A model generated the notes under the pieces. That model was not told the origin of the DNA. It searched no databases and was given only the letters and a program-made list of their open reading frames with translations. From positions 21,762,001 to 21,826,000 of the forward strand of contig JANJGN010000026.1 of the NCBI GenBank assembly GCA_026770705.1: a stretch of DNA of 64,000 bases, written 5' to 3'. The translations under genes and the position numbers were made by a program. Positions 320-60,928 of the stretch are shown one piece after another. Source of the DNA: Isurus oxyrinchus (taxonomy: Eukaryota). Position 1 is the stretch's first letter. Each line of letters opens with the position of its first letter.

Positions 320-800
320 ATGTTGAAATGTTTGCTCCTCACCCACAGCGTTTCATCTGTTTAAAACCACAAACAGAAAGGTCCAGTTTTCTCCTAGAGT
401 TTGAGACAAATCAGCATCCAAAATGATGCTGAGTCTCAGCCAATGAGGGACATCCGGGCTCAGCCCCGCCCCTCGTACACTCCGATTGGTTGGAGGACCA
501 GCCGCTCACGCACTGTTCTCCAGCCCCACCCCTTCTTCCTATTGGTCCGGAGCTGCCGTCAATCACTCCCTGGGCATTGTGATCTGGAGCATGCGCAGTG
601 CGGGTGATGTCCATGGACAGACGCTTGTTTGTCTCATCTTCAGGCGGGAAGGAGGCGGATAAGCGGAGGCAGCGTTAGGGGCAGTGGGTGGGAGGAGAGG
701 CTTCAATACCCCTAATAAGACAGTACCGAACGGCAGCTGCGGGCTTTCTCTCGGTGCCAGACCTGAGTGGACAAATGTGGGTGAATGAAGGAAATGCAGC
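320..800 (+). promoter_or_regulatory. ZNF promoter cassette and probable non-coding exon 1 of ZNF locus 1
   Basis: CpG-rich; CCAAT/ATTGG x3, CCCCGCCCC, CGTCA, GCATGCGCA; donor-like GG|GTGAAT at 781; near-identical to 32350-32900 and to the reverse complement of 23270-23640. Confidence 0.75.
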
Positions 801-874
801 AATGGGTTTGTTAATGAGAAATTATCTTTAACTCACTTTACTGATCCTGGAGCAGGAGGAGAGAATGGTGTCAA

Positions 875-1010
875 TTTCTATCCTGGACTGACAGGGATGG
901 GTTTTACAGAGGGTTAGAAGGGGAGAATTTGCAGACGGGAAAGTCAAACCAAACATCACATTCAGAGCCGACCCGACACATCAGGACCTGGATATTATCG
1001 GCCTTTGACT
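875..1010 (+). other. Truncated duplicate of the ZNF coding-exon 5' end (acceptor plus UTR, no fingers)
   Basis: TTTTACAG|AGGGTTAGAAGGGGAGAATTTGCAGACGGGAAAGTCAAACCAAACATCAC...CCTTTGA matches the start of the ZNF exons, then breaks into CR1-like sequence. Confidence 0.7.
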
Positions 1011-1647
1011 TTGAGCATCGAGCTCCAGGTCATTAACGCTCACTGTCAGAAAAATTCCTTCCTCATATTCCCCCTTTATCTCTCGCTCGGAATCTGAAAT
1101 CTTTTTTCTGATCAGTTAATGTGAACAGTTTTTCTTTACCTATTCCCCCTAATACAGGGAAGAGGGAGAGTTTGTGGGAAGCAGGGTGCATGAGACGAGG
1201 ATTTACAGGTTTGGGGAAATGAGAGAAAAATGTTCCATATAAACTAGAATTATCTATTCTGAATTTCTATCCCGGACTGACAGTGATCACTTTTAACAAC
1301 TGGTTTTACAGGGTTGCAATGAGAATCTAAAGAGATGGGAAACTCAAAGCAAACATCACATCAAGGTCTGACTGAGTCACTCAATTCATCAAATTCTGAA
1401 TACCATTGTTTTGAATGTAGAAGGAGAAATGTTTGTTCTGTCTGTGGGAAAGGATTTTGAATGTCGTTGTTACTGGAAACTCTGAGTGAGAGTGTTCCAG
1501 CGCACTGACTGTGGAAAGTGCTTTATCCAGTTACACAGCCTGAAAAAAAAAATCACCCTTATTCACAGCAGACAGAAATCATACACACGTTCTCTTTCTG
1601 GACGAGGCTTCAACTGGACCAACCTGGAGAGACAAAAGGACACCAAC

Positions 1648-2579
1648 ATGATGGGTAAACTCTGGAAATGTGGGGTCTGTGGGAAAGGATTCAGGTCCCC
1701 ATCTGAGCTGGAAATTCATCGACGCAGTCACACTGGGGAGAGGCCGTTCACCAGCTTTGATTGTGGGAAGGGATTCACTGAGTCATCCAACTTAGACAGG
1801 CACCAGAGAATTCATACCAGGGAGAAGACATTCACCTGCTCCGAGTGTGAGAAAGGATTCACTCAGTTATCCAGCTTACATTCACACCAGAAAACTCACA
1901 CTGGAGAGAAACCATTCACTTGCTCTGAGTGTGGGAAAGGATTCATTTATTCATCTGCCCTGCTGATACACCAGCAAGTTCACACTGGTGAGAGACCTTT
2001 TAAATGCCCAGATTGTGGGGAGTGCTATAAAAGTTCCAGGGTACTGAGGTCGCATCAATGTGTTCACACCGATGAGAGACCATTCAGATGCTCTCACTGT
2101 GGGACTGGGTTCAGAAGATCATCTCATCTCACTGTGCACCAATGCACCCACACTGGAGAGAGAGACCGTTCACCTGCTCCCAGTGTGGGAAGGGATTCAC
2201 TCAGTCATCTCAGCTGCTGACACACCAGCGAGTTCATACTGGGGAGAGACCATTCACCTGCTCCAAGTGTGGGGAGGAATTCACTTGATCCTTCACCCTG
2301 CTGCAACACCAATGGGTTCATACCGGGGAGAGGACATTCATCTGCTCTGTGTGTGGGAAAGGATTCAGTCGGTCATCCAACCTCACTGCTCACCAGCGAA
2401 TTCACACTGGAGAGAGACCGTTCACTTGCTGCATCTGTGGAAAGGGATTCACAAAGTCGTTCAATCTGCTGACACACCAACGCACTCATGCTGGGGAGAG
2501 AAAATTCAACTGCCCTGTCTGTGGGAAGGGATTCACTCAGTCATGATGCCTCCTGAGACATCAGTGAGTTCATAAGTGA
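1648..2579 (+). pseudogene. ZNF locus 1: C2H2 zinc-finger gene, truncated/disrupted
   Basis: About 11 finger repeats with TGERP linkers; 2-nt AG insertion at ~2160, TGA at 2286 and 2544. ATG1648-2220 could still give 5 intact fingers. Confidence 0.85.
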
Positions 2580-3061
2580 CTGCAAGGGGTTGGATTCTGC
2601 CGTAATTGCTGCTGTTAATCACGTTTAGTATTGATAATTTAAGATTATTTAGTTTGTTTCTGCTGATGTTAACAATCCCTATAACTGACTGGAGTTTAAT
2701 ATTGTGGAGATGTCACTGATTTTTGGGGCTGCATTGTCTTTTTTTAAAAATAGCATCTGTGATCTTTCCCCTTAATTCAAGAACTCTCAACAGGAACCTT
2801 TTTATAATAAAATTATGAACTTTTACTTCAATCCTAAACTGATCTTCGTTGATAAGTCTACAATTCATTGTCTGAAGGATCCAGCAGAAAAGACAAAAGA
2901 CTTTGTGTATATTAACTCCATTAACTTTGAATCTATAATTAAGCTGTTTTTGTCAATTTTTGTTTATTAAATCTCTGATACTCCATTTCCAAAATGAAAA
3001 TTCTAACTCTTTGGCACAAGATAATTTATTGGGAGTGAGTCTCACATGTGCAGCTGCTGGA

Positions 3062-3130
3062 CAGTGGGTAAGGAGGAGGTGAAAATGCAGGTGTTGCATC
3101 TCCTGCACTTGTGTGGAAGGTGCCTTGGGA
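3062..3130 (-). mobile_element. Penelope-like fragment (Cys-rich linker region)
   Basis: Reverse complement resembles 62785-62855 (GGCACC..GATGCAACACCTGC..TTCACCTCCTCC). Confidence 0.55.
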
Positions 3131-3299
3131 CGTTTATAATTTCTGTATTTCTAAAAGTAAACATATTATAGAAAGGATTTGCCTCGTGTGTGTTCTCACT
3201 GCATGACTGACAGACATTCTGTCTAAGTAAGTTGAAGTTGTTGCCATTGGTCTGTCTATGTTCATTCTTCCTTTGGAAAACTGGTTTGAAAAGTAATAT

Positions 3300-3572
3300 T
3301 TGACAGGATTAGGACTGAGATGAGAAATTTCTTCATCCCGAGAGCGGTGAGCCTGTGGAATTCATTACCACAGAAAGTAGTTGAGACCAAAACATTGTAT
3401 GCTTTCAAGAAGGAGTTAGATATAGCTCTTGGGGCGAAAGGGATCAAAGGGTATGGGGAGAAAGCGGGAGCAGGCTATTGAGTTGGATGATCAGCCATGA
3501 ACATAATGAATGGTGGAGCGGGCTTGAAGGGCCAAATGGCCTCCTCCTGCTCCTAGTTTCTATGTTTCTATG
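3300..3572 (+). mobile_element. CR1-type LINE 3' end
   Basis: RTEMRNFFIPRAVSLWNSLP ORF2 end; GAAGGGCCAAATGGCCT..CCTGCTCCTA hairpin; TTCTATG tail repeats. Confidence 0.85.
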
Positions 3573-4744
3573 ATTTATATGAAAGCCCCTGACAGTTATA
3601 TTCACCCACCATCAAATAAAGACACTTTATAATATTCTGTGTCACATGAAACCCTTTGTGGATGAAAACGGGATCTGCTGCAGTCATCAAAGTAGATTGA
3701 ACACATTTTCACTGAAATTAAGTTAACCGGATGCTTGTGATCCTTGGTTTTGGTTTTAATCATTTTATTAGAAACTGCTCATTTCATAAAGGCGTTTATA
3801 TATTTGGTAAATAGGTGCAGACTGTTTATTGAATCAGACAGTGGAGCAGGAAAATACTCACTTGATTCGATCTTCATTGTGTGGGGATTTACATTCAAAA
3901 CTCATTGGTAACGTCACTGCACCACCTGAGGTCAGCTCAGACTGGGGGTTCTGTATGTTGTCTGTGAGCGTTAATCCGTAAATAACAGTATTTAGGAATG
4001 TAAACCTGGACGAATGGAACTCAACTTCTAATTTGACATATGTGATTCACAAGTGAGTTCACAACACCTGTTTAATCAAATTCCTGTGCTCTACACTCTA
4101 GCGTTCTTTCAACCCACCTCCAGAAATATATAAAGATAATCAAGGCTTTCTCAGCAGAATGAGAAGAGTTCTACTCTTCTCTGATTGTTGGATTGCTCCT
4201 TACGAGGCTCACACTGCTATGAAACCTTCTAGTTCCGTCTCAGGGAGAAACCACTCCTCCACACATCACTGATTCAGGCAGTATATCAGTGAGCCTCCTT
4301 CCTCAAAATGGATGCCAAAACCTCTCCTCCTGTTACAGTTCTGTCTTTGCAGCAGCGCAGCAAGATTGGGAGAGACAGAATCTGTGATTGGAAGAGATGC
4401 TGCTCACTGATTCTGTCTCTCACAAAGGTTTTACTTCCAGTGCTTGTCCCTGTGATTGAATTTTCATGGGTTTTTGTGGGGTGAATTTTCCCGCTGCCCC
4501 TGTGCATTGTGTGGTTCTGAAATACTGTCAGTCTGATTTTAAGGCTTCCTAGAATAATGAACTGATCCAAATTTGAAATGATCCATATCCCCGTCTGAGT
4601 TCCAGATTTTAATGCAATTGTCGAATCCGGAAAACATATATAAGTTAACCCCTTTAAACCTGATTCAGCACATTCCCTCCACACATAATACAAGAGATTG
4701 TCTTTGAGATCAGTTGTTCCTTTGTAGTCAGTATTGTCCTGAAG

Positions 4745-5170: not shown

Positions 5171-5214
5171 TACATTATTTATTATTATTTCATCATGTTG
5201 CCACAATTCGCTAA

Positions 5215-5760
5215 CAAATGTTGAAATGTTTGCTCCGCAACCATAGGGTTTCATCTGTTTAAAGCCACAAACAGTAAGGTCCAGTTTTCTCCTGGAGTTT
5301 GAGACAAATCAGCTTCAACCAACGAGGGAGATCCGGGCTAAGCCCCGCCCCCTCATTCACTCTGATTGACTGGAGGACCAGCCGCTCCCGCTCGGTCCTC
5401 CATCCCCGCCCCCTCTTCTTATTGGTCCGGAGCTGACGTCCATCACTCCCCGGGCATTGTGATCTAGAGCATGCGCATTGCGGGTGAAGGCGATTGACAG
5501 ACTTTTGTTCGTCTCATCTTCGGGGGTAAGAGAAATGGCGGAGTGGAGGGAGAGATGGGGCCGGTGGGTGGACGGGGCAGGTTCATAAGTACTCGATGAG
5601 GCTCTGAATCCAGGATAAGAAGCTACCGGTGCCGCGTTTGTTTCTGTGGGGTGGAGGTTGCGGGCATCGCGTCTCCAGTGAAAGGCCCGCCATCTTGAGC
5701 GGGGTCATTGTGCATCAGGGCGCATGCGCAATCATCCATGTCCCTGTCAGCAGGAGGAGA
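5215..5760 (+). promoter_or_regulatory. ZNF promoter cassette and exon 1 region of ZNF locus 2
   Basis: Same cassette as 320-640; TGACGTC, GCATGCGCA, YY1-like CCGCCATCTT (~5687), GCGCATGCGC (~5720). Confidence 0.75.
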
Positions 5761-6790: not shown

Positions 6791-6802
6791 GTTTCTCTCT
6801 CA

Positions 6803-7165
6803 TATGAACATACGGATTAGGAGCAGGAGCAGACCACTCAGCCCCTATCATTTAATAAGATCATGGCTGATCTGATTGTAACCTCAACTTCACATTCCCG
6901 CCTACTCCGATAACATTGCACTCCCTTGCTTGTCAAGAATCTATCTACCACTGCCTTAAAAATATTCAAAGACTCTATTTCCAGCACCTTTTGCAGAAGA
7001 GAGTTCCAAAGACTCACAACCCTCTGAGAGAAAAATATTCTCCTCATCTCTGTCTTAAATGGGTGACCCCCTTATTTTTATACAGTGGCCCCTAGTTCTA
7101 GATTCTCCCACAAGAGGAAACTTCATCTCCACATCCACCCTGTCAAGACTCCTCAGGATCTTGAG
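6803..7165 (-). mobile_element. CR1 LINE 3' end
   Basis: ORF 6838..7047 MRRIFFSQRVVSLWNSL; CR1 tail. Confidence 0.85.
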
Positions 7166-7750: not shown

Positions 7751-8680
7751 ATGGAAGGAAAAAGCACTGCTCAAAGTGGAGAGAAACCATGGAAATGTGG
7801 AGACTGTGAGGAGAGATTCAGTTACCCATGTGAGCTGGAAACTCATCGACGCACTCACACTGGGGAGAGGCCATTTACCTGCTCCGTGTGTGGGAAGGGA
7901 TTCTCTCGATCATCCCAGCTGATTACACACCAGCGAGTTCACACCGGGGAGAAACCATTCACCTGCTCCAAGTGTGGCAAGGGATTCACTCAGTCTTCCA
8001 ACCTGCTGACACACCAGCGGGTTCACACTGGGGAGAGACCTTTTCAATGCCCAGACTGTGGAAAGTGTTATAGAAGTTCTGGGGACCTGATGTCCCATCA
8101 ACGTGTTCACACTGATGAGAGACCGTTCAGGTGCTCTCACTGTGGGGCTGGGTTCAGGGGATCATTTCAACTCACTGTACACCAGCGAATTCACACTGGG
8201 GAGAGGCCATTTACTTGCTATATGTGTGGCAAAGGATTCACTCAGTTATCCCACGTGCTGAGACACGAAAGAGTTCACACTGGGGAAAGACCTTTTGAAT
8301 GCCCAGACTGTGGGAAGTGCTATAAAAGTTCCGGGGAACTGATATCCCATCAACGTATTCACACTGATGAGAGACCATTCAGGTGCTTTTACTGTGGGGC
8401 TGCTTTCAGGGGATCATCTCAACTTTCTGTACATCAGCGAATTCACACTGGGGACAGGCCATTCACCTGCTCTGAGTGTGGGAAGGGATTCACTCAGTCA
8501 TCCACCCTGCTGAATCACCAGCGAGTTCATACTGGGGAGAGGCCATTCACCTGCTCCGAGTGCGGAAAGAGATTCACTCGATCGTCCCACCTGCGAGGTC
8601 ACCAGCGAGGTCACATGATGGGAGGGCATTCACCTACACCGTGTTTGGGAAGAGATTCAGTCGGTCATCCACCCTGTTGA
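7751..8680 (+). CDS. ZNF locus 2: C2H2 zinc-finger protein, 10 fingers, no effector domain
   Basis: Family start AACATGG (MEGKS) at 7751; 10 CxxC-12-HxxxH fingers with TGERP/TDERP linkers; an 11th finger is decayed in another frame. Confidence 0.92.
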
Positions 8681-9739: not shown

Positions 9740-10135
9740 GGCGACTGGACTACCCACAGTCCCATGCGTCTCAGAAACCGCTCTATCTGCTGCAAGTTGG
9801 CGGCAGTTCCGCGCATGCTCGGCGGATTCTGGGCTCTTTGTTTGAGGTTGTTTCCGGAGAGAAGCCGGGAGCGGCGGATTGTGAAAGTGGCGAATGTTCA
9901 TTATTCAATATTCGGCTCTGGGGCCGCACTCGGGATTTGTGAACCCCGCCCCCCCCCCCCCCCCCCGCCGCCCGTGACTTCTCACCTGACACCTCACAAT
10001 GCCCAAGTGACTGACGGCAGCTCCGGACCAATAATAACAGCGGGGGCGGGACTGGAGGATCGAACGAGAGCGGCTGGTCCTCCAGCAAATCAGAGTGAAT
10101 GAAGGGCGGGGCGTGCGCATTGTGGGTACTGGAGC
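9740..10135 (+). promoter_or_regulatory. Promoter/exon 1 region of ZNF locus 3 (cassette inverted relative to gene)
   Basis: CpG-rich; ACTACCCACAGTCCC ZNF143-like site, GCGCATGC, poly-C; 9835-10110 is the reverse complement of 27230-27505; acceptor CACAG| at 10201. Confidence 0.7.
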
Positions 10136-10575
10136 CGGAAGGCCTATTTAGAATTTCTATCCTGTGTCTTAAGTGATGAGTTTTCTAAACTCCTTTCACA
10201 GGTGGTTAGATGGGGAGGATCTACAGACGGGAAAATCGTAACAAACATCACATCATAATCTGACAGAGTCACCAGATTCATCAGGACCTGAACATCATCA
10301 GCCTTTCAATGTGCAAGGAGAAATGTTTGTCTGCTTCTGTCTGTGGGGAAAAATTTCAAAGATCAGTGTGGCTGGAAAAGCACCGAGACACAGACACACC
10401 TGAGTGAGAGTGTTCCAGTGAACTGACTGTGGAAAGAGCTTTAACCAGTTATACAGCCTGAAAAAACATCACAGCATTTGCAGTGGGGAGAACCTGTTAC
10501 ACGTATTCTGTGTGGACGAGCTTCAACTGATCATCCAACCTAGAGAGACACAAACGTACGAAGAACACCAGCACC

Positions 10576-11289
10576 ATGGAGAAACCGTGGAAATGTGATG
10601 ACTGCGGTAAAGGATTCAATTATCCATCCCAGCTGGAAATGCATCGACGCAGTCACACTGGGGAGAGACCATTCACCTGTTCCCTGTGTGGGAAGGGATT
10701 TACTCAGACAACCAAACTCATGTTACACCAGCAAATTCACACTGAGGAGAGGCCATTCAGCTGCACTCGCTGTGGAATGAAATTCAGGAGTGCATCCACC
10801 CTGCTGAGGCACCAGCAGCTTCATACTGGGCAGAGGCCATACACCTGCTCCATATGTGGGAAGGGATTCAGTCAGTCATCTGGACTTTGCACACACCAGC
10901 GAATTCACACTGAGGAGAAGGCATTCAGCTGCACTTCCTGTGGAAAGAGATTCAGGCAGTCATCCGAGCTCAATGAACACCAGAGAATTCACACTGGGGA
11001 GAGGCCATTCATCTGCACCGTGTGTAGGAAGGGATTCACTCGGTCATCCCACCTTCTGAGACACCAGCGAGTTCACACTGAGGAGAGACCATTCAACTGC
11101 ACTTCCTGCGAAAAGAGATTCAGGCAGTCATCCGACCTCAAAGCACACCAACGAGTTCACACTGGGGAAAGGCCATTCACTTGCCGTGTGTGTGGGAAGG
11201 GATTCACTCAGTCATCCCACCTGCTGACACACCAGCGAGTTCATAAGAAACTGCAGGAGTCGGATTCTGCTGTTATTGTTTGCTCTTAA
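10576..11289 (+). CDS. ZNF locus 3: C2H2 zinc-finger protein, 8 fingers
   Basis: Kozak ACCATGG; 8 intact fingers; uninterrupted ORF. Confidence 0.92.
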
Positions 11290-12169: not shown

Positions 12170-14730
12170 CACTGTGGGTGACCTTAATCTACATATAGAT
12201 TGAACAAACCAAACAAGCGATAATATTGTGGAGGAGGATTTCCTGGAGTGTGTACATGATAGTTTTTTAGACCAATACGTTGAGGAACCAACCAGAGAGC
12301 AGGCTATCCTAGACTGGGCATTGTGCAATGAGAAAGAATTAATTAACAATCTTGTTGTGCAGGGTCCCTTGGGGAAGAGCGACCATAAAATGATAGAATT
12401 GTTCATTAGGATGGAAAGTGAACATGTTGAATCCAAAACTAGGGTCCTGAATCTGAATAAAGGGAACTATGAGGGTATGAGGTGCAAGTTGGCAATGATG
12501 TATTAGGAAACCTTACTAACAGGATTGACAGTGGATTGGCAATGGCTAATATTTAAGAAACATATGCATAAGTTACAACAATTATTCCTGTCTGGTGCAA
12601 GAATAAAATAGGAAAGGTGGCTCAACCATAGATTATAAAAGAAATTAGGGATAGTATTAGATCCAAAGAGGAGACATATAAAAATGCCAGAAAAAGCAGC
12701 AAGCCTGAGGATTGGGAGCAGTTTAGAATTTAACAAACGTGGACAAAAAGATTGATCAAGAAGGGGAAAATGGAGTATGAGAACATAAAAGGAACATAAA
12801 AACTGACAGAAAACACTTCTATAAATATATGAAGAGAAACAGATTAGCGAAGACAAATGTAGGTCTCTTACAGTCAGAAATGGGGGAAATTATGATGGGG
12901 AACAAAGAAATGGCAGAAGAATTGAACACATATTTTGGTTCTGTCTTCACAAAAGAGGACACAAATAATTTCCCAGAAAAGTTAGGCAACCAAGGGTTTA
13001 GTGAGAGGGAGGAATTGAAGAAAAGCAGTATAAGTAAAAAAAAAATGGTGCTAGAGAAATTAATGGGGTTAAAGGCTGAAAAATCCCCAGGGCCTGATAA
13101 CCTACACCCCAGAGTACTAAAGGAAATGGCCCTGGAAATATTGGATGCACTGATGGTCATCTTCCAAAATTCTATAGACTCTGGAGCAATTCCTACAAAT
13201 TGGGGGTGGCAAATTTAACCCCACTGTTTAAAAAAGGATGGAGAAAAAAACAGAATTACAGACCAGTTAGCCTAATGTCAGTAGTGGGGAAATTGCTAGA
13301 ACCTAGTATAAAAGATGTGGTAACAGAACATTTGAAAAGCATTAACAGGATTAGATAAAGTCAGCATGGGTTTATGAAAGGGAAATCATGCTTAACTTAA
13401 TGTACTGGAATTTTTTGAGGATGTAACTAGTAGAATAGATAAGGGAGAACCAGTGGATGTGATGTATCTGGATTTCAAGAAGGCTTTTGCTAAAGTCCCA
13501 CGTAAGGGGCTAGTGGGAAAAATTAAAACACATGGGATTGGAGGTCATATACTGGCATGGATTGAGAACTGGTTGACAGACCGGAAACATAGAGTGGGAA
13601 TAAATGGGTCTTTTTCCAGGTGGTAGGCGGTGTACCGCAGGAATCAGTGCTTGGGCCCCAGTTATTCACGATATATATAAATGACTTGAGTGAGGGAACC
13701 AAATGCAATATTATAAATGCAACAAAAACAAAATACTGGAAAAACTCAGCAGGTTTAGCAGCATCTGTGGAGAGAGAAACAAAGTTAACGTTTCGAGTCC
13801 GTAAGACCCTTCTTCAGAGCAATATTTCCAAGTTTCCTGATGACCCAAAACTGGGTGGGGTTGTGAGTTGTAAGGAGGATGCAGGGAGGTTCAGGGTGAT
13901 TTAGACAAGTTGTGTGTGTGGGCAAACGCATAGCAGATGCAGTATAACGTGGATAAATGTGAAGTTATACACTTTGGTGTGAAAAACAGAAAGGCAGAGT
14001 ATTTTTTAAATGGTGATATATTGGGATGTACAAAGGGATCTGGGTGTCCTTGTACACCAGTCAATGAAAATAAACAGGCAGCAAGCAATTAGGAAGGCAA
14101 ATGGTATGTTGGCCTTCATTGCAAGAGGATTTGAGTTCAGAAGTAGGGATGTCTTACTGCATAATACAGGCCTTGGTGAGACCACATCTGGAGTATTACA
14201 TGCAGTTTTGGTCTCCCTACCTGAGAAAGGATATATGTGCCTTAGAGGGAGTACAGCGAAAGTTCACTAGGCTGATACCGGGGATGGCAGGACTGTTGTA
14301 TGAGGAGAGATTAGTTTGAGTGGGCCTGTATCCATTAGAGTTTAGGAGCATGAGAGGGGACCTGATTTAAATGTATAAAATTCTAACTGGGCTAGACAGA
14401 CTAGATGCAGGGAGGATGTTTCCCCAGGCTGGGGAATATAGAACCAGGGGCCACAGCCTCAGGATATGGGGCAGACCATTTAGCACTGAGATGAGAAAAA
14501 GTTTCTTCATTCAGAGGGTGGTCAACCTGTGGAATTCTCTGCCACAGGAGGCTGTGGAGGCCGGGTCACTGAGTATATTCAAGAAAGAAATTGGTCAATC
14601 TTTGGATATTCGGGGCATCAAGGGAAAGAAAGCGGAAATATGTTGTTGAGATAGAAGATCAGCCATGATCATATTGAATTGCAGAGCAGGCTCGAAGGGC
14701 CGAATGGCCTGCTGCTGCTCCTGGTTTCTA
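12170..14730 (+). mobile_element. CR1 LINE (endonuclease end, RT, 3' UTR), decayed
   Basis: FLDQYVEEPTREQAILD, LGKSDH, KSPGPDNLHPRVLKE, GVPQxSVLGP.LF.IYINDL, RPHLEY..QFWSP; CR1 tail at ~14700; TGAGAC flanks both sides. Confidence 0.93.
13713..13818 (-). mobile_element. 106-bp Penelope-terminal insert with hammerhead-like motif, nested in CR1
   Basis: TSD GCAATATT at 13705-13712 and 13819-13826; minus strand CTGAAGA-A-GGGTC-ttacg-GACTC-GAAA-C-GTT-AACT. Confidence 0.8.
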
Positions 14731-15120: not shown

Positions 15121-15454
15121 ACAGAACAGCCTACAGGAATCAGCTTTCCTGAAAAAAATGGGCACCGACCTTTTCACAAGCTTTGTTTGCTGGGTCTCAG
15201 AGAGCTATACATTAGGCCGCACCCACCAACAAAAAACACTAGGGCTTAAAGGGGCCTTGCAGCTGTCAGGAAACAGTTGGATCTCCAATGGTAGCCAGTG
15301 CTTCCTGAGAGCTCGTGAGCCCAAAATATGCTATCTGATCCCACTGTGGGTCACTATCCTCAGCTTGGGAAGCCTTGACTTAAACTGAAACTATAAAATG
15401 GGAACGGGTTTTTAATGTTCTTGTCACAGTCTAAGCATTTAAGCCCTCTCTCTC

Positions 15455-15678
15455 TCTCTCCAGTGTGAACTCACTGGTGTGTTTGAAGGCTGGATGACTG
15501 AGTTAATCCATACATGGAGCAGATGAACAGCCTCTCCCTGACATTCATGTGCTAATGACTTCCAACTCAAATGAGTAATTGAATCTCTTCCCACCTCCCT
15601 TCATTAACACGGTTTCTCCCCAGTGTGACTAAGCTTGTGTCTTGACAGGCCAGGTGATCGGCTGAAACCTCGTCCAGG
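15455..15678 (-). pseudogene. Zinc-finger gene relic (2-3 decayed fingers, lineage A type)
   Basis: Minus strand GRGFSRSPGLSRHKLSHTGEKP...HQ*VHTGE. Confidence 0.7.
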
Positions 15679-18448: not shown

Positions 18449-19495
18449 TCACTGTAATTGTTTGTGAACTCGCTGATGACTCATCAGGGTGGATGACCGA
18501 GTGAATCTCTTCCCACACACAATGCAGATAAATGGTCTCTCCGCACTGTGAACTCGCTGGTGTTTCTGCAGGTGGGATGACTGACTGAATCCCTTTCCGC
18601 ATTCAGAGCAGATAAATGGCCTCTCCCCAGTGTGTGCTCGCTGGTGTACAGTGAGTTCAGATGACCACCTGAACCCAGCGCCACATTGAGAGCATCTGAA
18701 TGGTCTCACATCAGTGTGAATACGTTGATGGCGCATCAGTTCCCCAGAACTTTTATAGCACCTTCCGCAGTCTGGGCATTTAAAAGGTCTCTCATCAGTG
18801 TGAACTCGCTGGTGCCTCAGCAGGTGCGATGACTGAGTGAATCCCTTCCCACACTCGGAGCAGAGGAACGGTCTCTCCCCAGTGTGAATTCGCTGGTGTA
18901 CAGTGAGTTCACATGATTGCCTGAACCCAGCCCCACAGTGAGAGCACCTGAACGGTCTCTCGTCAGTGTGAAAACGTTGATGGGACATCAGTTCCTCAAA
19001 ACTTTTATAGCACTTCTCACAGTCTGTGCATTTGAAAGGTTTCTTGTCGGTGTGAATTTGCTGGTGTCTCATCAGGTTTGATGAACAAGTGAATCCCTTC
19101 CCACACACAGAGCAGGTGAACGGTCTCTCCCCAGTGTGACCTCGCTGGTGTATAAGCAGGGTGGATGACTGAGCGAATCCCTTCCCACACTTGGGGCAGA
19201 TGAATGGCCTCTCCCCAGTGTGAACTCTTCGGTGTGTCAGCAGATCAGATGAATTAATGAATCCTTTCCCACACTCGGAGCAGGTGAACGGCCTCTTCCC
19301 AGTGTGAACTCGCTGGTGTTTTCGCAGGTAGTTTGACTTTGTGAATCCCTTCCCGCACTCGGAGCAAGTGAACGGCCTCTCCTCAGTGTGAATTCGCTGG
19401 TGAATTTCCAGCTCAGATGGGTAATTGAATCCATTCTCATAGTCCCCACACTTCCATAGTTTTTCCCCAGAGTGAATGGTGCTTTTTGGTTCCAT
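18449..19495 (-). CDS. ZNF locus 4: C2H2 zinc-finger protein, 11 intact fingers plus 1 degenerate
   Basis: ATG (MEPKS) at 19495; open ORF; first finger has C->Y; polypyrimidine acceptor at ~19605. Confidence 0.92.
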
Positions 19496-27510: not shown

Positions 27511-27570
27511 GGGGGAGACAGTGGCCTAGTGGGAATGTCACTGGATCAGTAATTCAGAGACCCAGGGTCA
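27511..27570 (+). mobile_element. tRNA-derived SINE head fragment
   Basis: GGGGGAGACAGTGGCCTAGTGG (box A-like) ..CACTGGA..AGTAAT.CAGAG. Confidence 0.5.
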
Positions 27571-29495: not shown

Positions 29496-29499
29496 TTTT

Positions 29500-30433: not shown

Positions 30434-31110
<677 letters not shown>

Positions 31111-40631: not shown

Positions 40632-40894
40632 AGGAAACATATATCATTTAACCCCTTTAAACCTGATTGAGCACCCACACTCCATGCACACAAACTACAA
40701 GAGATTGTCTTTGAGACCAGTTGTTGCTGTATATATATGAACAGTTTGAACCTTCTCCCTAACCTGTCCTAACCCTTCTGTTGTTCGTTTATTGAAAACA
40801 AGGACACTCCTTGTTCTAATGGTGACATTCCCTGTTTGCCCAGTTATTCCTTGAAGTAACCCTTGAATTAGTTCTGCATTGTTTCATCATGTTC

Positions 40895-41930: not shown

Positions 41931-42863
41931 CCAGGAGAGAAAATAATCGATTCATTGATGATATTCTCACTCTCCACACACACTTGAGAACAGAACCCAG
42001 CCAGAGTACAGAGAGGGATAAAACTGGGAGTGAGGAAAGGAATGGTGTGATGTGTTTGGGAGGATGACGAACTCTCATGGAGAAAATTAAGGGACAGCCT
42101 GCCATGGGAGTCCATACGAGTCAATGGTGGGATGCTGCCAGAGTTGGTGGGGCGGGGGTGGGGGTAATGGGGGAAATAGCTGCCGGAGATGTTTGAACAC
42201 AGAAGCAGTAGACGATAGGGTACTGTAAGGGTTGCGACCAGAAAGGTTCAATTTACAGGACAAACAGTGTTCCGGCACCAGGACAGTTGACTCTCAAATA
42301 CTGAACAATGTTGTAAAATACTGTACAGTTGGTCACTCTGGGTTTTGGATTCCAGCACGGGGAGGAGGAAGACTGTGTAGGGTGAGGATTTACTGCTTTG
42401 CAGGAACAAGAGGATAGCATGTTCCATAGAAACTAGGTTTGTCTGTTCAGAATTTCTATCCTGTATTTGCACTGATGAGTTTTGTAAACTCCTTTTCCAG
42501 GGTATTAGAACGGGTGGAGTTACATTCAGGAAGCTCAAACCTAACATCACAGCATGGTCTGACAGAGTCACTCGATTCATCAGGACCTGAATAACATCAG
42601 CGTTTCAATGTGGAAGGAGAAATGTTTGTCTGTTTTGTCTGTGGGGAAATGTTTCAAACATTATGTGACTGGAAAATCACCAAGACACATACACCTGAGT
42701 GAGAGTGTTCCAGTGAATTGACTGTGGAAAGAGCTTTAACCAGTTACACAGCCTGAGGAAACATCAGATCATTCACAGTAGGGAGAAACTGTGCACCTGT
42801 TGTATATGTGGACAAGGATCAACCGATTGTCCAACTTGGAGAGACACAAAAAATACCGGTACC

Positions 42864-43454
42864 ATGGAGAAACCGTGGAAATGTGAGGACTGTGGTAAAG
42901 GATTCACTTATTCATCCCGGTTGGAAATCCATCGACGCATTCACACTGGGGAGAAGCCGTTCAGCTGTTCTGTGTGTGGGAAGGGATTCACTCAGTCATC
43001 CGGCCTTCGGTCACACCAGCGAGTTCACACTGAGAAGAAACCGTTCAGCTGCACAACCTGTGGAGAAAGGTTCAAGTCTTCATCCATCCTCAATGAACAC
43101 CAGCGGATTCACACGGGTGGGAGACCATTCACTTGCTTCGTGTGTGGGAAGGGATTCACTCAGGTATTTGCCCTCCAGTCACATCACCAAATGCACACGA
43201 AGGAGAATCCATTCAGCTGTACTTCCTGTGGAAAGAGTTTCAGGCAGTCAACCGACCTCAGTGAGCATCAACGCACTCACGTTGGGGAGAAGCCATTCTC
43301 CTGCTCCGTGTGTGGGAAGGGATTCTGTTGGTCATCTCAACTGCTGACACATCAACAAGTTCACACTGGGGAGAGGCCATTCACCTGCTCCTTGTGTGGG
43401 GCGGGATTCACTCAGTCACAACACCTGCTGAGACACGAGCGGGTTCACAAGTGA
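42864..43454 (+). CDS. ZNF locus 8: C2H2 zinc-finger protein, 7 fingers
   Basis: ACCATGG start; 7 intact fingers; family stop CACAAGTGA. Confidence 0.92.
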   Translation: MEKPWKCEDCGKGFTYSSRLEIHRRIHTGEKPFSCSVCGKGFTQSSGLRSHQRVHTEKKPFSCTTCGERFKSSSILNEHQRIHTGGRPFTCFVCGKGFTQVFALQSHHQMHTKENPFSCTSCGKSFRQSTDLSEHQRTHVGEKPFSCSVCGKGFCWSSQLLTHQQVHTGERPFTCSLCGAGFTQSQHLLRHERVHK

Positions 43455-48429: not shown

Positions 48430-48915
48430 AAGCTGGTAAATGACTGATTGATTCTTTTCCCATGCACACAGCAGGTGACTAGCCTCTCCCATGTGAACTC
48501 GCTGGTGTAACAGCAGGCGAGATGACTAAGTGATTCCTTTCCAGCAGACAGGTTAAGTGAATGGCCTCTCCTTTGTGTGAACTCGCTGGTGTAACAGTAG
48601 GTTGGATGACTGAGTGAATCTCTTCCAGCAGATGGGGCAGGTGAATGGCCTCCCCTGTGTGAGTTTGCCAATGACTTTCCAGCTTGGATAATTGAGTTCC
48701 CGCAGTCCTCATATTTTCACAGATTCTCCATTTTGTAAGTCTTCTTGTGTCTCTCAAAGTTAGATACCCAGTTGAAACCTGGTCCACACACAAAACACGT
48801 GTACAGTTTCTCTCTGCTTTGAATGGTGTGATGTTGTCCAGGCTGTGAATGGTTAAAGCTCTTTCCACAGCCAGTGCACTGGAACACTTTCACTTGGGTG
48901 TGTATCTTGGTGCTT
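48430..48915 (-). pseudogene. ZNF locus 9: heavily decayed lineage-B pseudogene
   Basis: Minus-strand finger remnants ([10 protein letters not shown] shadow frame, HTGE) with many stops and indels. Confidence 0.8.
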
Positions 48916-49049
48916 TACTCCTTGTGATGAGAACCAACTCAATGTGCCATCTGCATCATTCTTGTCCTCCACTCCCAGTTTTCTCCCTCCTTCTACTCTG
49001 GCTGGGTTCAGTTCTCACTTGTGTGCAGACTGGAAATAAAATCAATGAC

Positions 49050-50060: not shown

Positions 50061-50144
50061 GGGAGGTGAGATCCCAGGCACTGCACTGATGTCATAAAGC
50101 ATCACCATTCTATCCATCTGGTCCTCTCCTTGTCCCTTTAAAGG

Positions 50145-50472
50145 TGGAGAACTGGGACATCCTGTCTCCAAACACATCCCACCCTGTTCATACTGAGAAT
50201 CCCAGGCTGGAGAACTGGGACATATGTCTCCAAACACATCCCACCCTGTTCATACTGAGAATCCCAGTGTGGAAAACTGGGACATCCTGTCTCCAAACAC
50301 ATCCCACCCTGTTCATACTGAGAATCCCAGTGTGGAAAACTGGGACATTCTGTCTCCAAACACATCCCACCCTGTTCATACTGAGAATCCCAGTGTGGAA
50401 AATTGGGACATCCTGTCTCCAAACACATCCCATCCTGTTCATACCGAGAATCCCAGGGTGGAGAACTGGAAT
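50145..50472. repeat. 63-bp minisatellite, ~5 near-identical copies
   Basis: Unit TGGAAAACTGGGACATCCTGTCTCCAAACACATCCCACCCTGTTCATACTGAGAATCCCAGTG; explains the 21-aa repeat ORFs. Confidence 0.95.
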
Positions 50473-51771: not shown

Positions 51772-52470
51772 TTAACAGCAGAATCCAACCCCTGTAATCA
51801 CATGTGAACTCTGGTGTCTCAGCCAGTGGAATGAATCACTGAATCCCTTCCCACACTTAGAGCAGGCGAATGGTTTCTGCCCAGAGTGAACTCGCCAGTG
51901 TTTCAGCAAATTGGAAGACTGAGTGAATCCCTTCCCACACTCAGAGCAGGTGAACAGCTTCTGCCCAGAGTGAACTTGCCGGTGTTTCAGCAGATTTGAA
52001 GACTGAGTGAATCCCTTCCCACACGTGGAGCAGATGAATGGTTTCTCTCTGCTGTGAACTTGCTGGTGTGTTAGCAGTGTGGATGTATCCTTAAATCCCT
52101 TCCCACAGTCAGAGCAGGTCAACTGCCTCTCCCCAGTGTGAACTCGTTGGTGTGTTAGCAGTGTGGATGAATCCTTAAATCCCTTCCCACAGTCAGAGCA
52201 GGTCAACAGCCTCTCCCCAGTGTGAACTCGCTGGTGTCTCAGGAGAAGGGATGAATTAGTGAATCCTTTCCCACATTGAGAACAGATGAATGGCCTCTCT
52301 CTGCTGTGAACTCACTGGTGTGTCAGCAGTGTGGATGACTGAGCGATTCCCTTCTCACACTTCGAGCAGATGAACAGTCTCTCCCCGGTGTGACTGCGTC
52401 GAAGAGTTTCCAGCTCAGACGAGGTTCTGAATCCCTTCCCAGAGTCTCCACATTTCCACGGTTTCTCCAT
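51772..52470 (-). pseudogene. ZNF locus 10: 8-finger gene with nonsense mutation
   Basis: ACCATGG start at 52470; TGA (from CGA) at 52312-52314 with the frame continuing to 51772; first finger lost Cys and His; last finger frameshifted. Confidence 0.85.
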
Positions 52471-53029
52471 GGTGCCAGTGTCCTTGTGTCTCTCCCGATT
52501 GGATAAATAGTTGAAGCTTCGTCCACACACACAACACGTGTACAGCGTCTTCCCACTGTGAATGGTGTGATGTTTTTCAGGCAGTGTAACTGGTTAGAGC
52601 TCTTTTCATAGTCAGCGCATTAGAACACTCTCACTTGGGTGTGAGACTTGGTGCTGTTCTGGTCAAACTGATGTTAAAATGGTCAATGGTACTCACATCC
52701 CAACGAATAAAGTGATGTTAGATCATGATGTGACATTTGTTTTGCGATTTCAGTCTCCAAATCTCCCCTTCTAATATCCTGTAAAACGAATTTACAGAAA
52801 GTCATCATTGTCAGTACGGGATGTAAATTCAGAACAGACAATTCCAGTTTTTATGGATCATTCTTTCCTCTCTCGTTCCCCAAAAGCTGTAAATCTCTGC
52901 CCCACACCCTCTCCCTCCATTCTCACTCTGCTGTACCTAAGATACACCCTCTCAATTCTCCAGAAGGTGCTGCTTCATGCTGATCGACAGATCAATACAC
53001 ACCGCTTTCTGTCCTCAGCACAGAGATCA

Positions 53030-53585
53030 TAACATCATAAGAAATACGAACAGGAGTAGGCCATTTGGCCCATCAAGCCTGCTCTTCCATTCAATAGGAT
53101 CATGGTTGATCTGATTGTGATCTTAACTCCAATTTCCTGCCTGTCACCCATGACCCTTGACTCTTGTCAATCAAAAGTCTGTATAACTCAGCCTTGAATA
53201 TATTCAATGACTTGGCCTCCATTACTCTCTGGGGAAGAGAATTCCACAGAATAATGGCCCTCTGATAGAAGAAATTTCTCCTCAATTCCATGTTAAATGA
53301 GAGACCCCTTATTTTGAGGATCTGCTCCCCTAGTTCTAGAATCCCCCATGAGGGGAAACACCCTCTCTTCATCGACCCTGTCAACCCCCCTCAGAATCTT
53401 ATAGGTTTCAGTAAGATCACCTCTCATTCTTCTAAACTCCCATGAGTACAGGCCCAACCTTTCCTCATAAGACAACATCTTCATCCCAGTAATCAGCCTG
53501 GTGATCCTACTCTGAACTGCTCCCAAGTTATTCTTGGGAATAGCTCCCCTTAATTAAGGACACCAAAACTGTACACAGTACTCCA
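53030..53585 (-). mobile_element. CR1 3' end in intron of locus 10
   Basis: SYEERLGLYSWEFRRMRGDL.ETYKIL; tail. Confidence 0.88.
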
Positions 53586-53589
53586 TGTA

Positions 53590-56372
53590 TTGTGATCTGA
53601 AAGCTATTACAGAGACATAGCTTCAAGGTGGCAAAGGCTGGGACCTGAATATTCAAGGGCACATGGTGTTTCAGAAGGACAGGAAGCTAGGAAAAGGTGG
53701 ATGGGTAGATCTGTCAGTTAAGGATGACATTAGTACAACAGAGACAGATGACCTTAGTTCTGGAGATCAAGATGTAGAATCAGATTGGGTAGTGATAAGA
53801 AATAGTAAAGGTAGTGATAATAAATAGTAAAGGTAGGAAGTCACTTGTGGGAATAGTTTATAAGCCCCCTAACAGTAACCACACTGTAGGACAGGGTGTG
53901 TAGAAGGAATAATGGTAGGTATTAATCCAGGTATTTTTATATTTATTTTTGTTTTGGATTTCCAGCATCCGCAGATTTTTGCTTTTAAGAAATAATAGGG
54001 GCTTGTGAGAAAGATACGGCAACAATCTTGGGTGATTTTAACCTACATGTAGATTGCATGAATCCGAACGGCAAAGTTAACCTGGAAGATGAGTTCGTTG
54101 GGTGTTTTCGGAACAATTTCTTAGAGCAGCATGTGCTACAGACAATCAGAAAGCATCTGGTAATGTGTAATGGGAAGGGATTAATTAATGGCCTCATAGT
54201 AAAGGTGCCCCAAGGTAGCAGTGATCATAATATGATTGAATTTTGTATTCAGTTCGAGGGAGAGAAGGGTCTAAGACTAGTGTTTTGAACTTAAATAAGG
54301 AAAATTATGAGGGTATGAAGACACAGCTGGCCAAAGCGAACTGGGAAATTAGACTAAGTGTTAAGTCAGTAGAGATGCAGTGGCAGAAATTTAAGGAGAT
54401 ATTTCATAATACTCAGAAAGATTCCATTGAGAAAAAAGACTCTAGGGGAAATATGTACCATACGTAGCTAACTAAGGCAGTTTAAGATAGTATCAAATTG
54501 AAAGAAAAAGTGTACAATTATGTGAAGATTAGTGGCAGGTTAGAAGATTGGACAGAATATAGAAAAAGCAAAGAACGGCTAAAAAATGAGGAAGAATTTA
54601 GAGTACAAGAGAAAGCTAGATGGAAATATGAAAGCAAATTGTAAGAGTTTCTATGGGTATTCAAAAAGGAAAAGAGTAAGTAAAGTGAACATTGGTCCTC
54701 TACAGGACGAGTCTGGGAATTAATAATGGAAAATAAGGCAATAGAAGATGAATTGAACACATATCTTGCATCTTCACTGTGCAGGTGAAAGGAAGGGAGG
54801 GACTTAAAACAATTACAATCACCAGGGAGAAAGCACTGAGAAAATTATTAGAACTGAAAGTTGAAAGATCCCTGGGTCCTGATTGTCTTCAACTTCGGGT
54901 CCTAAAAGAAGTAGTTGCTCAGACAGTAGATGCATTTGTTTTAATTTTCCAAAATTCCCTAAATTCTGGAATGATCCCAACAGATTGGAAAATTCCTAAG
55001 GTAACACCTTCATTCAACACAGAGGGACAGAAAGCAGGAAATTACAGCCCAACAAGCTTAACATGTGTCACTGGGGAAATGCTGGAATCTATCATTAAGG
55101 TTATAGTGGGACACTTGGAAAATCTCAGTGCAATCAGCTAGAATCAACAGGGTTTTGTGAAAGGGAAATTGGCTTGAGGAAGTAACAAGCAATGTGGATA
55201 AAGGAGAATCTGTGGATGTGATGTACTAGATTTCCAGGATTGACAAGTGCCACATCAAAGGTTACTATACAAAATAAGCTCATGGTGTTCGGGATAACAT
55301 ATTAGCATGGATAGGGGATCGATTAGCTAACAGGAAACAGAGAGTTGGCATAAACAGATCATTTTCAGGTTGGCAAAATGTAACGAGTGAAGTGCCACAG
55401 GGATCAGTGCTGGGCTTCAACTATCTACAACCTATATTAATGGCTTGGATGATGGGGCTGAATGTATGATTGCTAAATCTGCTGATGACATAAAGATAGA
55501 TAGAGGCACAAGTTGCCAAAAATCATAAGGAGTCTGTAAAGTGATATAGACAGGTTAAATGAGTGGGCAAAAATTTGGTAGATGGAGTATAATGTAGGAA
55601 AATGTGAACCTGTGCACGTTGGCAGGAAGAATAGAAAAGCAGCATTTTATATAAACGGAGAGAGACTGCAGAACTCTGAGATGCAGAGGGATCCGGGTGT
55701 CCACTATCTGAATATCAAAATGTTAGTGTGTAGGCACAGCAAGTGATTAGGAAGGCAAATTGAATGTTTTGGTTTGTTGCAAGGGCAATGGAATATAAAA
55801 GTTGGGATGTTTTGCCACAGTTGGACAGGTTGTTAGTAAGACCACATCTAGAGCACTGTGTACAGTTTTGGTCTCCATATTCAAGAAAGGGGTATAAATG
55901 CGTTAGAAGCAGTTCAGAGAAGGTTCACTTGAATGATCCCTGGGATTGGGGTTATTTTACGAGGCAAGGTTGGACAGGCTGGTCCAGTATACATTGGAGA
56001 TTAGAAGAATGAGAGGTGATCTTATTAAAACATATAAGGTCCTGAGGGGCCTTGACAGGATGGATGCTGAAATGATGTTTCCCCTTGTGGGGGAGACTAG
56101 AAATAGGGGACATAGTTTAAAACTATTTAAGGCAGAGATGAGATTTTTTTTCTCTCAAAGGGTCGTGAATCTTTGGAATTTGTTTCCCCAGAGAGCGGTG
56201 GAGAATGGGTCTAATCAATATTTTTAAGGCAAAAGTTATATAAACTCTTGACTAACAAGGGGGTGTAAAATTTCAGGGGAAAGCAGAATGTGAACTGGAG
56301 GTTACAGTCAGATCAGCCATGATCTTATTGAATGGTGGAGCAGGGCCGAATGGCCTATTCCTGCTCCTAATT
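53590..56372 (+). mobile_element. CR1 LINE ORF2 (endonuclease to 3' UTR), decayed
   Basis: AITET, GDFN, SDHN endonuclease motifs; VPQGSVLG, ADD, RPHLEHCVQFWSP; tail GGGCCGAATGGCCTATTCCTGCTCC. Confidence 0.92.
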
Positions 56373-56374
56373 CC

Positions 56375-56772
56375 CGCTCACCGAACAATCCCTCTTCCCT
56401 CACCAAGGTGGCCGCCCATGTGCCTCGATCCCTGAACAAGCCCCGCCTTCCTCTCTCAAGATGGCGGCCTGTTGCCTGGATAACACGGCCCGTCACCGGG
56501 GAGGAAGCTCCACCTCCCTGATCCGCCCTGACTCGCAATATGGCGGCCAGTAAGCCCGCTACGCGGCCTTGTTATCGCGGGGCCAATGGCCTGTTATTCA
56601 GGGCCTGGGGCCTACCCCAGAAGTTGATCCAGTTCCCAGTCCAGCCGCGGTTTCCATTCGTACCCTGTGCTCACAATCTCCTCCCGCCTCCCGAACCGTC
56701 CGCTCCTCCTGACTTTGTCACCATGACTGACACTGAGCATGCTCAGAGCGCGCGCGCGCGCGCGCACGCACG

Positions 56773-56813
<41 letters not shown>

Positions 56814-58870: not shown

Positions 58871-59094
58871 AGGGAAGAGGGAGAGAGGCACTAATTTGTG
58901 AGAGAGATCAAAATGACTCATCATACTGTCTGTTAAAGCTGATTTATTTGACTTTTATCCAGAGTATTAACACATATAACAGGGATAGAGTTTATTATCA
59001 TCAGCAGAAACAGATTCCAAAGCTATTTTTGTTTTGATACAAGTGATGGAGAATTACCGGGAAGGTCAATACAACATGGAGATTGTTTTAAATA

Positions 59095-59215
59095 AAAGCA
59101 AAATACTATGATTGCTGGGAAACTGAAATAAAACCAGAAAATGGTGAAAAACTCAGCAGGTCTAGCAGCATCAGTGGAAATAGAAAAACCAAGTTAACAT
59201 TTTGCGTCCATACAG
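59095..59215 (-). repeat. Penelope-terminal repeat, degenerate
   Basis: AAAACTCAGCAGGTCTAGCAGCATC, the reverse complement of the shared tail. Confidence 0.7.
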
Positions 59216-59249
59216 ATTTCCTTCCCTGAAGGACATTAGTGAACCAAAG

Positions 59250-59765
59250 ACCCAATCTATGGACTGTCGGTTTGAGCCTAAGGAAGACAATCAGAGTGAA
59301 GGTGTAAAGATGATGGGTGAATACTTGGACAACATGAGTAGCTTCAAATACCTGGGGTAACTTGGACAATATCAAGAAGAGAGGACAACGACTGGATACT
59401 AAAGAAATACAGATGCTGAGATGGATGTGTGGAGTGACAAGAAAGGACAGGATTAGAAACTAGTACATCAGGGGGTCCGTGAAGATTGTGGAAACATCAA
59501 AGAATGTAGCTGAGAAAAGATTGAAATGGTCTGGTCATTTGTCGTGGAGAGAGACAGGAAATGTGGTGAGGTGAGTGATGGACATGGGACTGTCAGGAAG
59601 AAGGAGAAGATGAAGGTCTAAGACCAGATGGAAAGATATGGTGGCCAGAGACAGAAATGCAGTGGGATTGGAAGAGGAATGTGTGAGTGTCAGGAGGAGA
59701 TAGAGAAGGTGATCAAGCAGCTTTGTGGTGACCCCAAGTAAAATGGGAGGAAGAGGAAGAAGAAA
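59250..59765 (+). mobile_element. RTE-clade LINE 3' end in 3' UTR of locus 11
   Basis: FKYLG, MLRWMCGVTRKDRIRN, RLKWSGH; GAA-repeat tail. Confidence 0.8.
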
Positions 59766-59811
59766 AAACATATCCCTGGATGTGGTTAACAGCAAAATCA
59801 AATCACAGTAG

Positions 59812-60928
59812 TTACTCATGAACTCGCTGATGTCTCAGCAGGTTGGACAAGTCAGTGAATCCCTTCCCACACTCAGAGCAGGTGAATGGCCTCCCCCCAG
59901 TGTGAATCCACTGGTGCCTCAGCAGGTTGGCTGACTGAGTGAATCCCTTCCCACACTCAGAGCAGGTGAACGGCCTCTCTCCAGTGTGCGTGCCCTGGTG
60001 CTTCAGAAGGGTGGATTAATCAGAGAATCCCTTCCCGCACTCAGAGCAGGTGAATGGTCTCTTCCCAGTGTGAATTCGTTGGTGTACAATAAGGTCAGCT
60101 GATCGCCTGAACCCAGTCCCACAGTGAGAGCATTTGAACGGTCTCTCCTCAGTGTGAACATGTTGGTGGGAGATCAATTCCCCGGAACTTTTATAGCACT
60201 TCCCACAATCTGGGCATTTAAAAGGTCTTTCATCAGTGTGAACTCTGGTGTATAAGCAAGTCAGATGACCGAGTGAATCCCTTCTCACTCTCTGAGCAGG
60301 TGAATGGTCTCTCCCCAGTGTGAGTGAGCTTGTGTAAATGCAGGCTGCCGGATGGAGTGAATCCTTTCCCGCACTCGGAGCAGGTGAATGGCCTTTCCCC
60401 AGTATGAACCTGCCGGTGAGCCAACAGGTTGGATAATTGAATGAATCCCTTCCCACACAGAACAGGTCAATGGTCTCTCCCCAGTGTGAACTCGCTGGTG
60501 TGTCATCAGGTGGGATGACCGAGTGAATCCCTTCCCACACACAGAACAGGCGAATGGTCTCTCCCCAGTTTGATCATGCTGGTGTGTCAACAGATAGGAT
60601 GACTGAGTGAATCCCTTCCCACACTCGGAGCAGGTGAATGGCCTCTCCCCAGTGTGAACTCGCCGGTGTGTCAGCAGGGTGGCTGACCGAGTGAATTCCT
60701 TCCCACACCAGAGCAGGTAAATGGTCTCTCCCCAGTGTGAATTCGCTGGTGAATCTGCAGGGCAGATGAATGAGTGAATCCCTTCCCACAGACCTCACAT
60801 TTCCATGGTTTCTCCCTCATGTGATTGTGCTTGTGTCTCGACAGGCCAGATGATCGGCTGAAGCTCCGTCCACACACAGAACACATGTACGGTTTCTCTC
60901 CATTGTGGATGGTGCTTTTCCCTTCCAT
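59812..60928 (-). pseudogene. ZNF locus 11: ~13-finger gene with several frameshifts
   Basis: [14 protein letters not shown] start; fingers spread over 4 ORF-track frames through small deletions. Confidence 0.87.

Follow-up and report, generated by a model that had tools for sequence, protein, structure and literature searches.

The shark Isurus oxyrinchus carries a large family of C2H2 zinc-finger (ZNF) genes, one array of which was analysed in a window of 64,000 nucleotides (nt) at positions 21,762,001-21,826,000 of contig JANJGN010000026.1 (assembly GCA_026770705.1; C26 below, 40.3 Mb of a 4.98-Gb genome). The evidence supports a finger-only architecture for these genes. On the best reading of the sequences, the family would descend from a longer gene, the N-terminal part of which has decayed into 5' untranslated region (UTR) as far as a constant, atypical finger.

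Results

A six-frame scan of the window returned 96 finger-like matches, a few isolated ones being due to chance. The matches form 11 loci, and a minus-strand finger fragment at ~15453-15676 completes a set of 12. Five loci are intact (2, 3, 4, 7 and 8) and seven are dead, with stops, frameshifts or lost starts, the same count as that of an initial annotation of this stretch made from its letters alone. The genes have the features of poly-C2H2 families, with at least five C-X2-C-X12-H-X3-H fingers, TGERP-type linkers and clustered paralogs undergoing birth-and-death. In Pfam, the proteins of the five intact open reading frames (ORFs) match finger-type families only, in agreement with the domain-less products proposed in that annotation.

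Sampling of 1.864 Mb of the genome yielded 183 loci with at least three fingers, 68 of which passed a strict filter for intact genes. This filter undercounts, because it drops genes like locus 7, an intact ORF followed by dead fingers. Type A (42 of the 68; loci 2, 4 and 7) has a 15-amino-acid (aa) leader and a splice acceptor 109 nt upstream of the ATG, whereas in type B (22 of the 68; loci 3 and 8) only 6 aa separate the ATG from the first finger and the acceptor lies ~345-375 nt upstream. The start context is strong (purine at -3 in 50/50 genes, G at +4 in 49/50), and the stop lies one codon past the last His in 49 of the 68. A start within ~15 aa of the first finger, as initially described, is thus seen as a distance of 6 or 15 aa, except that at locus 4 the finger at 15 aa lacks one Cys and the first canonical finger is found 43 aa in. 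The closed frame ahead of the ATG reported for loci 4, 5 and 7 is present at two of them, as TAA at 19562-19564 (minus strand) and 35963-35965 (plus strand), locus 7 having a second in-frame stop, TGA at 35906-35908, whereas locus 5 is broken and has GTG instead of the start. Position 320, previously given as the beginning of the array, falls in the promoter-like module of locus 1, before its fingers.

Each gene shows a single coding stretch, and the segment between acceptor and ATG behaves as non-coding sequence. Of 32 aligned type A genes, 31 have a stop in frame there. In the enlarged set of 42 type A genes, three have at least 36 open codons ahead of the ATG; of these, one is truly open, another divergent and the third misclassified. 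None of the 22 type B genes is open to its acceptor, a distance of about 115 codons. The statement that no N-terminal domain can be spliced on therefore stands for nearly all of type A, but is too strong for the one gene of 32 that is open to the acceptor and for the type B genes, at least 3 of 18, that have weak in-frame AGs. Translated in the frame of the fingers, the sequence that follows the phase 1 acceptor reads like a linker, which in type B runs on into two or three decayed fingers. Selection was tested by pairing extant genes on the tree without reusing any branch and comparing synonymous changes with those expected from the same base changes placed at random. In the last finger, which served as positive control, the ratio of nonsynonymous to synonymous change (dN/dS) was 0.52 over 15 type A pairs (z 3.9) and 0.38 over 8 type B pairs (z 3.6). 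Between acceptor and ATG the ratio was 0.95 in type A, and two segments of type B had values of 1.01 and 0.90; most insertions and deletions (indels) in this stretch shift the frame. An upstream ATG inside this segment (for example, within 35881-35989) occurs in 23 of the 42 type A genes and could dampen translation.

No coding signal was detected in 18 frame tests of three conserved upstream blocks, namely the promoter core (75 copies), an upstream acceptor block (60) and a candidate middle exon (20); the largest z, 2.0, belonged to an antisense frame. Upstream of the five intact loci, Pfam searches of all three sense frames returned no effector domain, SCAN, BTB and ZAD included, but only weak matches to decayed fingers and one unrelated match below threshold. 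A genome search for KRAB gave three matches among 147 candidates, none of them on C26: two on C34 and a weak one on C5. The two on C34 are near-identical KRAB-A-like exons (17128973-17129083 and 17698231-17698341), which we take to be PRDM9-like and probably part of duplicated PRDM9-type genes. Among the best 150 of 4267 SCAN-like candidates none is on C26; these candidates are spread over the large chromosomes and are probably remains of retrotransposon gag genes. Shark gene models that contain the linker have no upstream domain in common. Contigs from sequencing runs guessed to be RNA span 35881-35998 with 3 differences and 35890-35998 with 4, and loose ends of paralogs in such contigs bear the same TAA, which lends weak support to a transcribed, stop-containing segment. 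A joint from 28874 to 30357, seen in two of these runs and fitting a repeat-like upstream exon near the acceptor of locus 6, was rejected, as 19 of its letters disagree with the window and a paralog is its probable source.

Near their N-terminus the intact genes have a constant, atypical finger that is almost always single-copy. Its hallmarks are Trp-Lys before the first Cys, Tyr-Pro at helix positions -1 and +1, and Glu at +5. Of the 64 type A and B genes, 62 have a recognisable version of it (60 by similarity and two as Cys-broken copies) and 59 retain all its zinc ligands; only two extra copies occur in total. Proteins of skate, smooth-hound and horn shark also contain it. In type A, the finger that precedes it is degenerate in 9 of 40 genes and absent in 8 of 40. 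Since type B begins at the constant finger and the preceding finger erodes in type A, the N-terminal erosion appears to end there.

Downstream of the stop, ~17 codons stay in the finger frame before a second stop is reached. This tail is open and in frame in 16 of 16 type B and 14 of 31 type A genes, and its indels over 8 type B pairs are two in-frame and none frameshifting. The intervening stop has been lost by a 3-nt deletion in 10 of 16 parsed paralogs (of 30 cut), and two horn shark gene models end with the tail segment in frame. Nevertheless, its dN/dS is 0.96 in type A and 0.76 in type B (z 0.8), and an open tail is kept in 18 of the 19 broken type B genes in which it was located, as in 22 of 23 intact ones; the broken-gene control drew on 47 genes outside the intact classes, some of them intact with other endings. 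A coding tail had been suggested by a star-type comparison with the majority line (dN/dS 0.40, type B), but these comparisons are not independent and the result was undone by the pair test and the broken-gene control. The possibility that the last finger ends in a splice donor was also discarded: the -1 and +5 positions are off consensus, and the GT is missing in 4 of 42 sequences. Homologue searches with the whole locus 7 protein, or with a finger plus the tail, were swamped by generic fingers. The tail is read here as a vestige, presumably translated in some members.

Diversity in the fingers is centred on DNA-contact positions. The variability initially noted at helix residues -1, 2, 3 and 6 is confirmed at -1, +3 and +6 (3.1-3.5 bits) but not at +2, where 498 of 694 fingers have Ser (1.9 bits); these 694 fingers carry 366 distinct contact fingerprints. 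Multi-gene blocks have been duplicated, in line with the proposed birth-and-death: the window recurs from 18 to 62 kb at C26:25.477-25.522 Mb in the same orientation and from 23.6 to 60.6 kb at C26:22.81-22.85 Mb in inverted orientation, with 88-93% identity, and different copies survive in each block, loci 6 and 11 being dead here and intact in a duplicate. Against the duplicates, dN/dS is 0.45 for locus 4, 0.31 for locus 7 and 0.21 for locus 8. Judged by such ratios, the fingers are under purifying selection, with the contact sites freer than the scaffold.

The family extends far beyond the window. With 177 aa of locus 7 as query, 23,814 candidates came up at first look; the best 150, which were scored, are distributed on C26 from 0.4 to 39.5 Mb and also on C38, C42, C20 and small contigs. 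Density on C26 is patchy, with 172 loci in 1.704 Mb, mostly in blocks picked near matches, and 4 loci in 140 kb in seven 20-kb blocks picked without a match; extrapolation gives a total of roughly one to four thousand loci on this contig. Dozens of unplaced contigs (C126, C225, C336, C342 and C358 among them) contain near-identical copies of one finger gene, suggesting either a large and very recent amplification or redundant assembly. The lineage-specific character asserted in the initial annotation agrees with the relatives of the pre-ATG segment, which are sharks in 8 of 10 matches (basking shark, white shark, horn shark and a sawshark); the two weakest are from catfish and vole.

Most loci share an upstream CpG-rich module containing CCAAT and GC boxes, its observed/expected (o/e) CpG ratio being 0.61-0.88 in seven modules and 0.32 in the whole window. 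We read this module as the promoter. At 27231-27511 and 9829-10112 it is present as reversed copies, which lie ~480 nt in front of some genes and have another gene ~3 kb off in the opposite direction, an arrangement that suggests bidirectional promoters.

Table 1. Coordinates of the array within the window (position 1 is its first letter; CDS, coding sequence)
Feature	Positions	Strand	Remarks
Locus 1, promoter-like module	318-900	+	CpG-rich; self-BLAST, CpG o/e, CCAAT and GC boxes
Locus 1	1669-2573	+	Type B, dead (frameshift, stops); 10 fingers
Locus 2, promoter-like module	5184-5588	+	
Locus 2 CDS	7751-8680	+	Type A, intact; 10 fingers; in-frame TAA 7724-7726
Locus 3, promoter-like module	9829-10112	.	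Reversed with respect to the locus 7 module
Locus 3, predicted 5' UTR	10202-10575	+	Acceptor, decayed linker, decayed fingers; TGA 10528-10530
Locus 3 CDS	10576-11289	+	Type B, intact; 8 fingers; begins at constant finger
Twelfth locus	15453-15676	-	Finger-gene fragment, dead
Locus 4 CDS	18449-19495	-	Type A, intact; 11 canonical fingers; constant first finger lacks one Cys
Locus 4, acceptor-to-ATG segment	19496-19604	-	109 nt; TAA 19562-19564
Locus 4, promoter-like module	23220-23677	-	
Locus 5	25265-26785	-	Dead (GTG at family start position, frameshifts, stop)
Loci 5 and 6, promoter-like module	27231-27511	.	Between divergent loci; possibly shared
Locus 6	30342-31104	+	Dead; counterpart at C26:25.489 Mb intact, 9 fingers
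Locus 7, promoter-like module	32303-32860	+	
Locus 7, acceptor-to-ATG segment	35881-35989	+	109 nt; stops 35906-35908 and 35963-35965
Locus 7 CDS	35990-37114	+	Type A, intact; 13 fingers; dead fingers onward to ~37670
Locus 8, promoter-like modules	40878-41584	+	
Locus 8, predicted 5' UTR	42501-42863	+	Decayed linker and fingers; TGA 42714-42716
Locus 8 CDS	42864-43454	+	Type B, intact; 7 fingers
Locus 8, post-stop segment	43455-43511	+	18 open codons in finger frame, then second stop; presumed family-wide vestigial tail
Locus 9	48440-48916	-	Dead fragment
Locus 10	51802-52593	-	Type B, dead (stop near N-terminus)
Locus 11	59818-60928	-	Type A, dead; counterpart at C26:25.520 Mb intact, 13 fingers

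Other repeats are found around and between the genes. Remains of Penelope-like retroelements, with a weak GIY-YIG match, lie at 62193-63208 (plus strand) and 54-338 (minus strand), and copies 97-99% identical near C26:25.50 Mb suggest recent activity. Fragments at 12200-14730, 53000-56400, 3300-3570 and 6800-7160, between the finger genes, we assume from their translations to be reverse transcriptase of CR1-type long interspersed nuclear elements. There are also two minisatellites, at 50144-50469 (63-nt unit, 5.2 copies, 93% matches) and 34929-35130 (36-nt unit, 5.7 copies).

Discussion

In the absence of an effector domain, any repression by these proteins would have to come from the finger array itself. 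According to the explanation that we favour, the finger-only genes multiply and die through block duplication, and a CpG-island promoter would drive their transcription through non-coding exons. Canonical linkers and the pattern of variability suggest that the proteins likely bind DNA through the variable downstream fingers, the likely targets, by analogy, being repeats. Repression would then follow most likely from a partner recruited by the constant finger, or else from plain occupancy. Taken as a whole (finger-only DNA binders, likely on repeats, repressing through a finger-borne partner site or through occupancy), we give this explanation an even chance. A role in policing transposons is likely by analogy, and the constant finger is a candidate handle for a partner, no more. 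A bolder version is doubtful: that sharks and rays possess a chromosome-scale system of transposon control, in which the lost N-terminal effector was replaced by a single-copy atypical finger that recruits a co-repressor while the others read the target. If true, vertebrates would possess an alternative to KRAB and FiNZ that uses one of the fingers as its handle.

Several observations weigh against the favoured explanation. The constant finger has a dN/dS of 0.41, against 0.46 for the last finger, with no clear extra constraint, and it loses zinc ligands about as often as internal fingers do (3/62 and 34/588 slots); at locus 4 it has lost a Cys, and its +3 and +6 residues vary as in a DNA reader. 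Locus 8 and other type B genes (at least 3 of 18 in all) have, 80-85 nt ahead of the ATG, a weak AG from which the frame runs on without a stop. Moreover, because a crude pyrimidine score of acceptors hardly tells real AGs from cryptic ones, rare splicing past the stop is conceivable. The contact residues are also conservative between duplicates at loci 7 and 8, with 0 of 52 and 1 of 28 changed (6 of 44 at locus 4). In 16 young pairs (at least 90% identity) contact dN/dS is 0.52 (bootstrap 0.30-0.82) and scaffold dN/dS 0.40, and in 13 pairs including three at 84% they are 0.73-0.84 and 0.34-0.36, the former never exceeding 1; these are pooled pairwise averages, in which single selected sites may be masked. 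Rapid adaptive change of the contact residues is not borne out by pooled values of 0.52-0.84, and an arms race is not supported by them.

The conservatism of young duplicates is what would be expected if the genes encode finger-only DNA binders that have no dedicated anti-transposon role and sit in a duplication-prone region, where ordinary purifying selection (on gene, satellite or self-cluster targets) acts while most copies die by drift. The 45-kb blocks duplicated at ~90% identity with different survivors, and the mere 68 of 183 sampled loci that pass the intact filter, fit such an account. We nevertheless hold it to be unlikely, if a serious possibility, given that family diversity is centred on -1, +3 and +6, that contact dN/dS is about twice that of the scaffold once older pairs are included, and that ZNF counts follow retroelement counts across animals (PMC10547256, available sections). 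Binding of DNA is itself disputed by the idea that the proteins act chiefly on RNA or as protein scaffolds. C2H2 arrays are able to bind RNA or proteins, and no chromatin effector is present; the canonical TGERP-type linkers and the classical variability at DNA-contact positions make this idea very improbable.

A hidden effector could instead lie at either end of the protein. At the C-terminus, the 17-codon tail might be translated by readthrough, or in members without the stop, and recruit a cofactor, which would agree with the invariably open type B tails free of frameshifting indels, with a stop that is mostly TGA-C, with the stop-deleted members in the genome and with the two horn shark models. 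The near-neutral dN/dS of the tail, its closure in more than half of type A, its persistence in broken type B genes as often as in intact ones and the absence of a fixed readthrough motif render this highly improbable. At the N-terminus, a distant or unrecognised coding exon might splice to a weak acceptor past the in-frame stop and add an effector as FiNZ or KRAB exons do. The phase 1 acceptor, the linker-like segment in finger frame, the one gene open throughout and the weak in-frame AGs of type B speak for it; but the conserved upstream blocks lack a coding signal, no Pfam effector was found in the regions searched, linker-containing shark proteins share no upstream domain and the contigs guessed to be RNA run through the stop-containing segment at 35881-35998 with 3 differences, so that we regard such an exon as highly improbable.

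Finger-only binders retaining a fossil of their lost N-terminal part would allow one to test whether a large repertoire of fingers can do without an attached silencing domain. Their single start context suits pooled knockdown, and the constant finger suits pull-down and mutation. The decayed linker and the tail also account for spurious fused shark ZNF models from gene predictors. For the seven sharks and rays returned from it, the supplement of PMC10547256 lists 703-3586 ZNF ORFs (1851 in white shark, 3586 in small-spotted catshark and 1223 in thorny skate), and for elephant shark 475; these sets very probably represent the same family. Cartilaginous fish have about one to several thousand tandem ZNF ORFs, in this genome without a KRAB-ZNF expansion. 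The main text of that paper, as available, contains none of the terms shark, catshark, cartilaginous or chondrichth, the sets being merely counted in the supplement, and no description of the structure of shark ZNF arrays was found in the literature searched, which left outside most subscription journals and supplementary files 3-5 of PMC10547256. The shark expansion has already been counted in print, while its structure is apparently undescribed within that literature.

By the sequence features tested, this is a poly-ZNF expansion and not a KRAB-, FiNZ-, SCAN-, BTB- or ZAD-ZNF family. Its genes resemble the sarcopterygian KRAB-ZNF clusters, which act through KRAB-TRIM28, in their tandem arrangement, birth-and-death, single last finger exon behind a linker, 21-aa fingers and 7-aa linkers; unlike them, they have no KRAB on C26, and their linker is closed by stops and evolves neutrally. 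The consulted parts of the sources place the origin of KRAB-type ZNFs after the split from cartilaginous fish, PRDM9 being the only one in whale shark (PMC11603059), and report >200 aKRAB-ZNFs in coelacanth (PMC8835667). Poly-ZF genes without an annotated N-terminal domain are a further parallel: Emerson and Thomas (2009, PMC2604467) had, in the portion available, finger-only predictions in every species analysed and left undecided whether these were real or incompletely annotated, and the genomic tests in the shark favour the former. The closest resemblance is to the cyprinid FiNZ-ZNF genes of zebrafish chromosome 4q (Wells et al. 2023, PMC10547256), likewise hundreds of tandem C2H2 genes in one repeat-rich chromosome region, lineage-specific and outside the KRAB/TRIM28 system. 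According to the accessible text of that study, ZNF and retroelement counts correlate across animals and knockdown of zebrafish FiNZ-ZNFs de-represses transposable elements. FiNZ, however, is a conserved acidic 28-aa domain on its own upstream coding exon, whereas the shark genes have no upstream coding signal, a comparison made indirectly, through the conserved upstream blocks rather than a FiNZ profile. Likewise, 4 of 7 FiNZ-ZNF clades are under positive selection, as against a pooled contact dN/dS below 1 in the shark genes.

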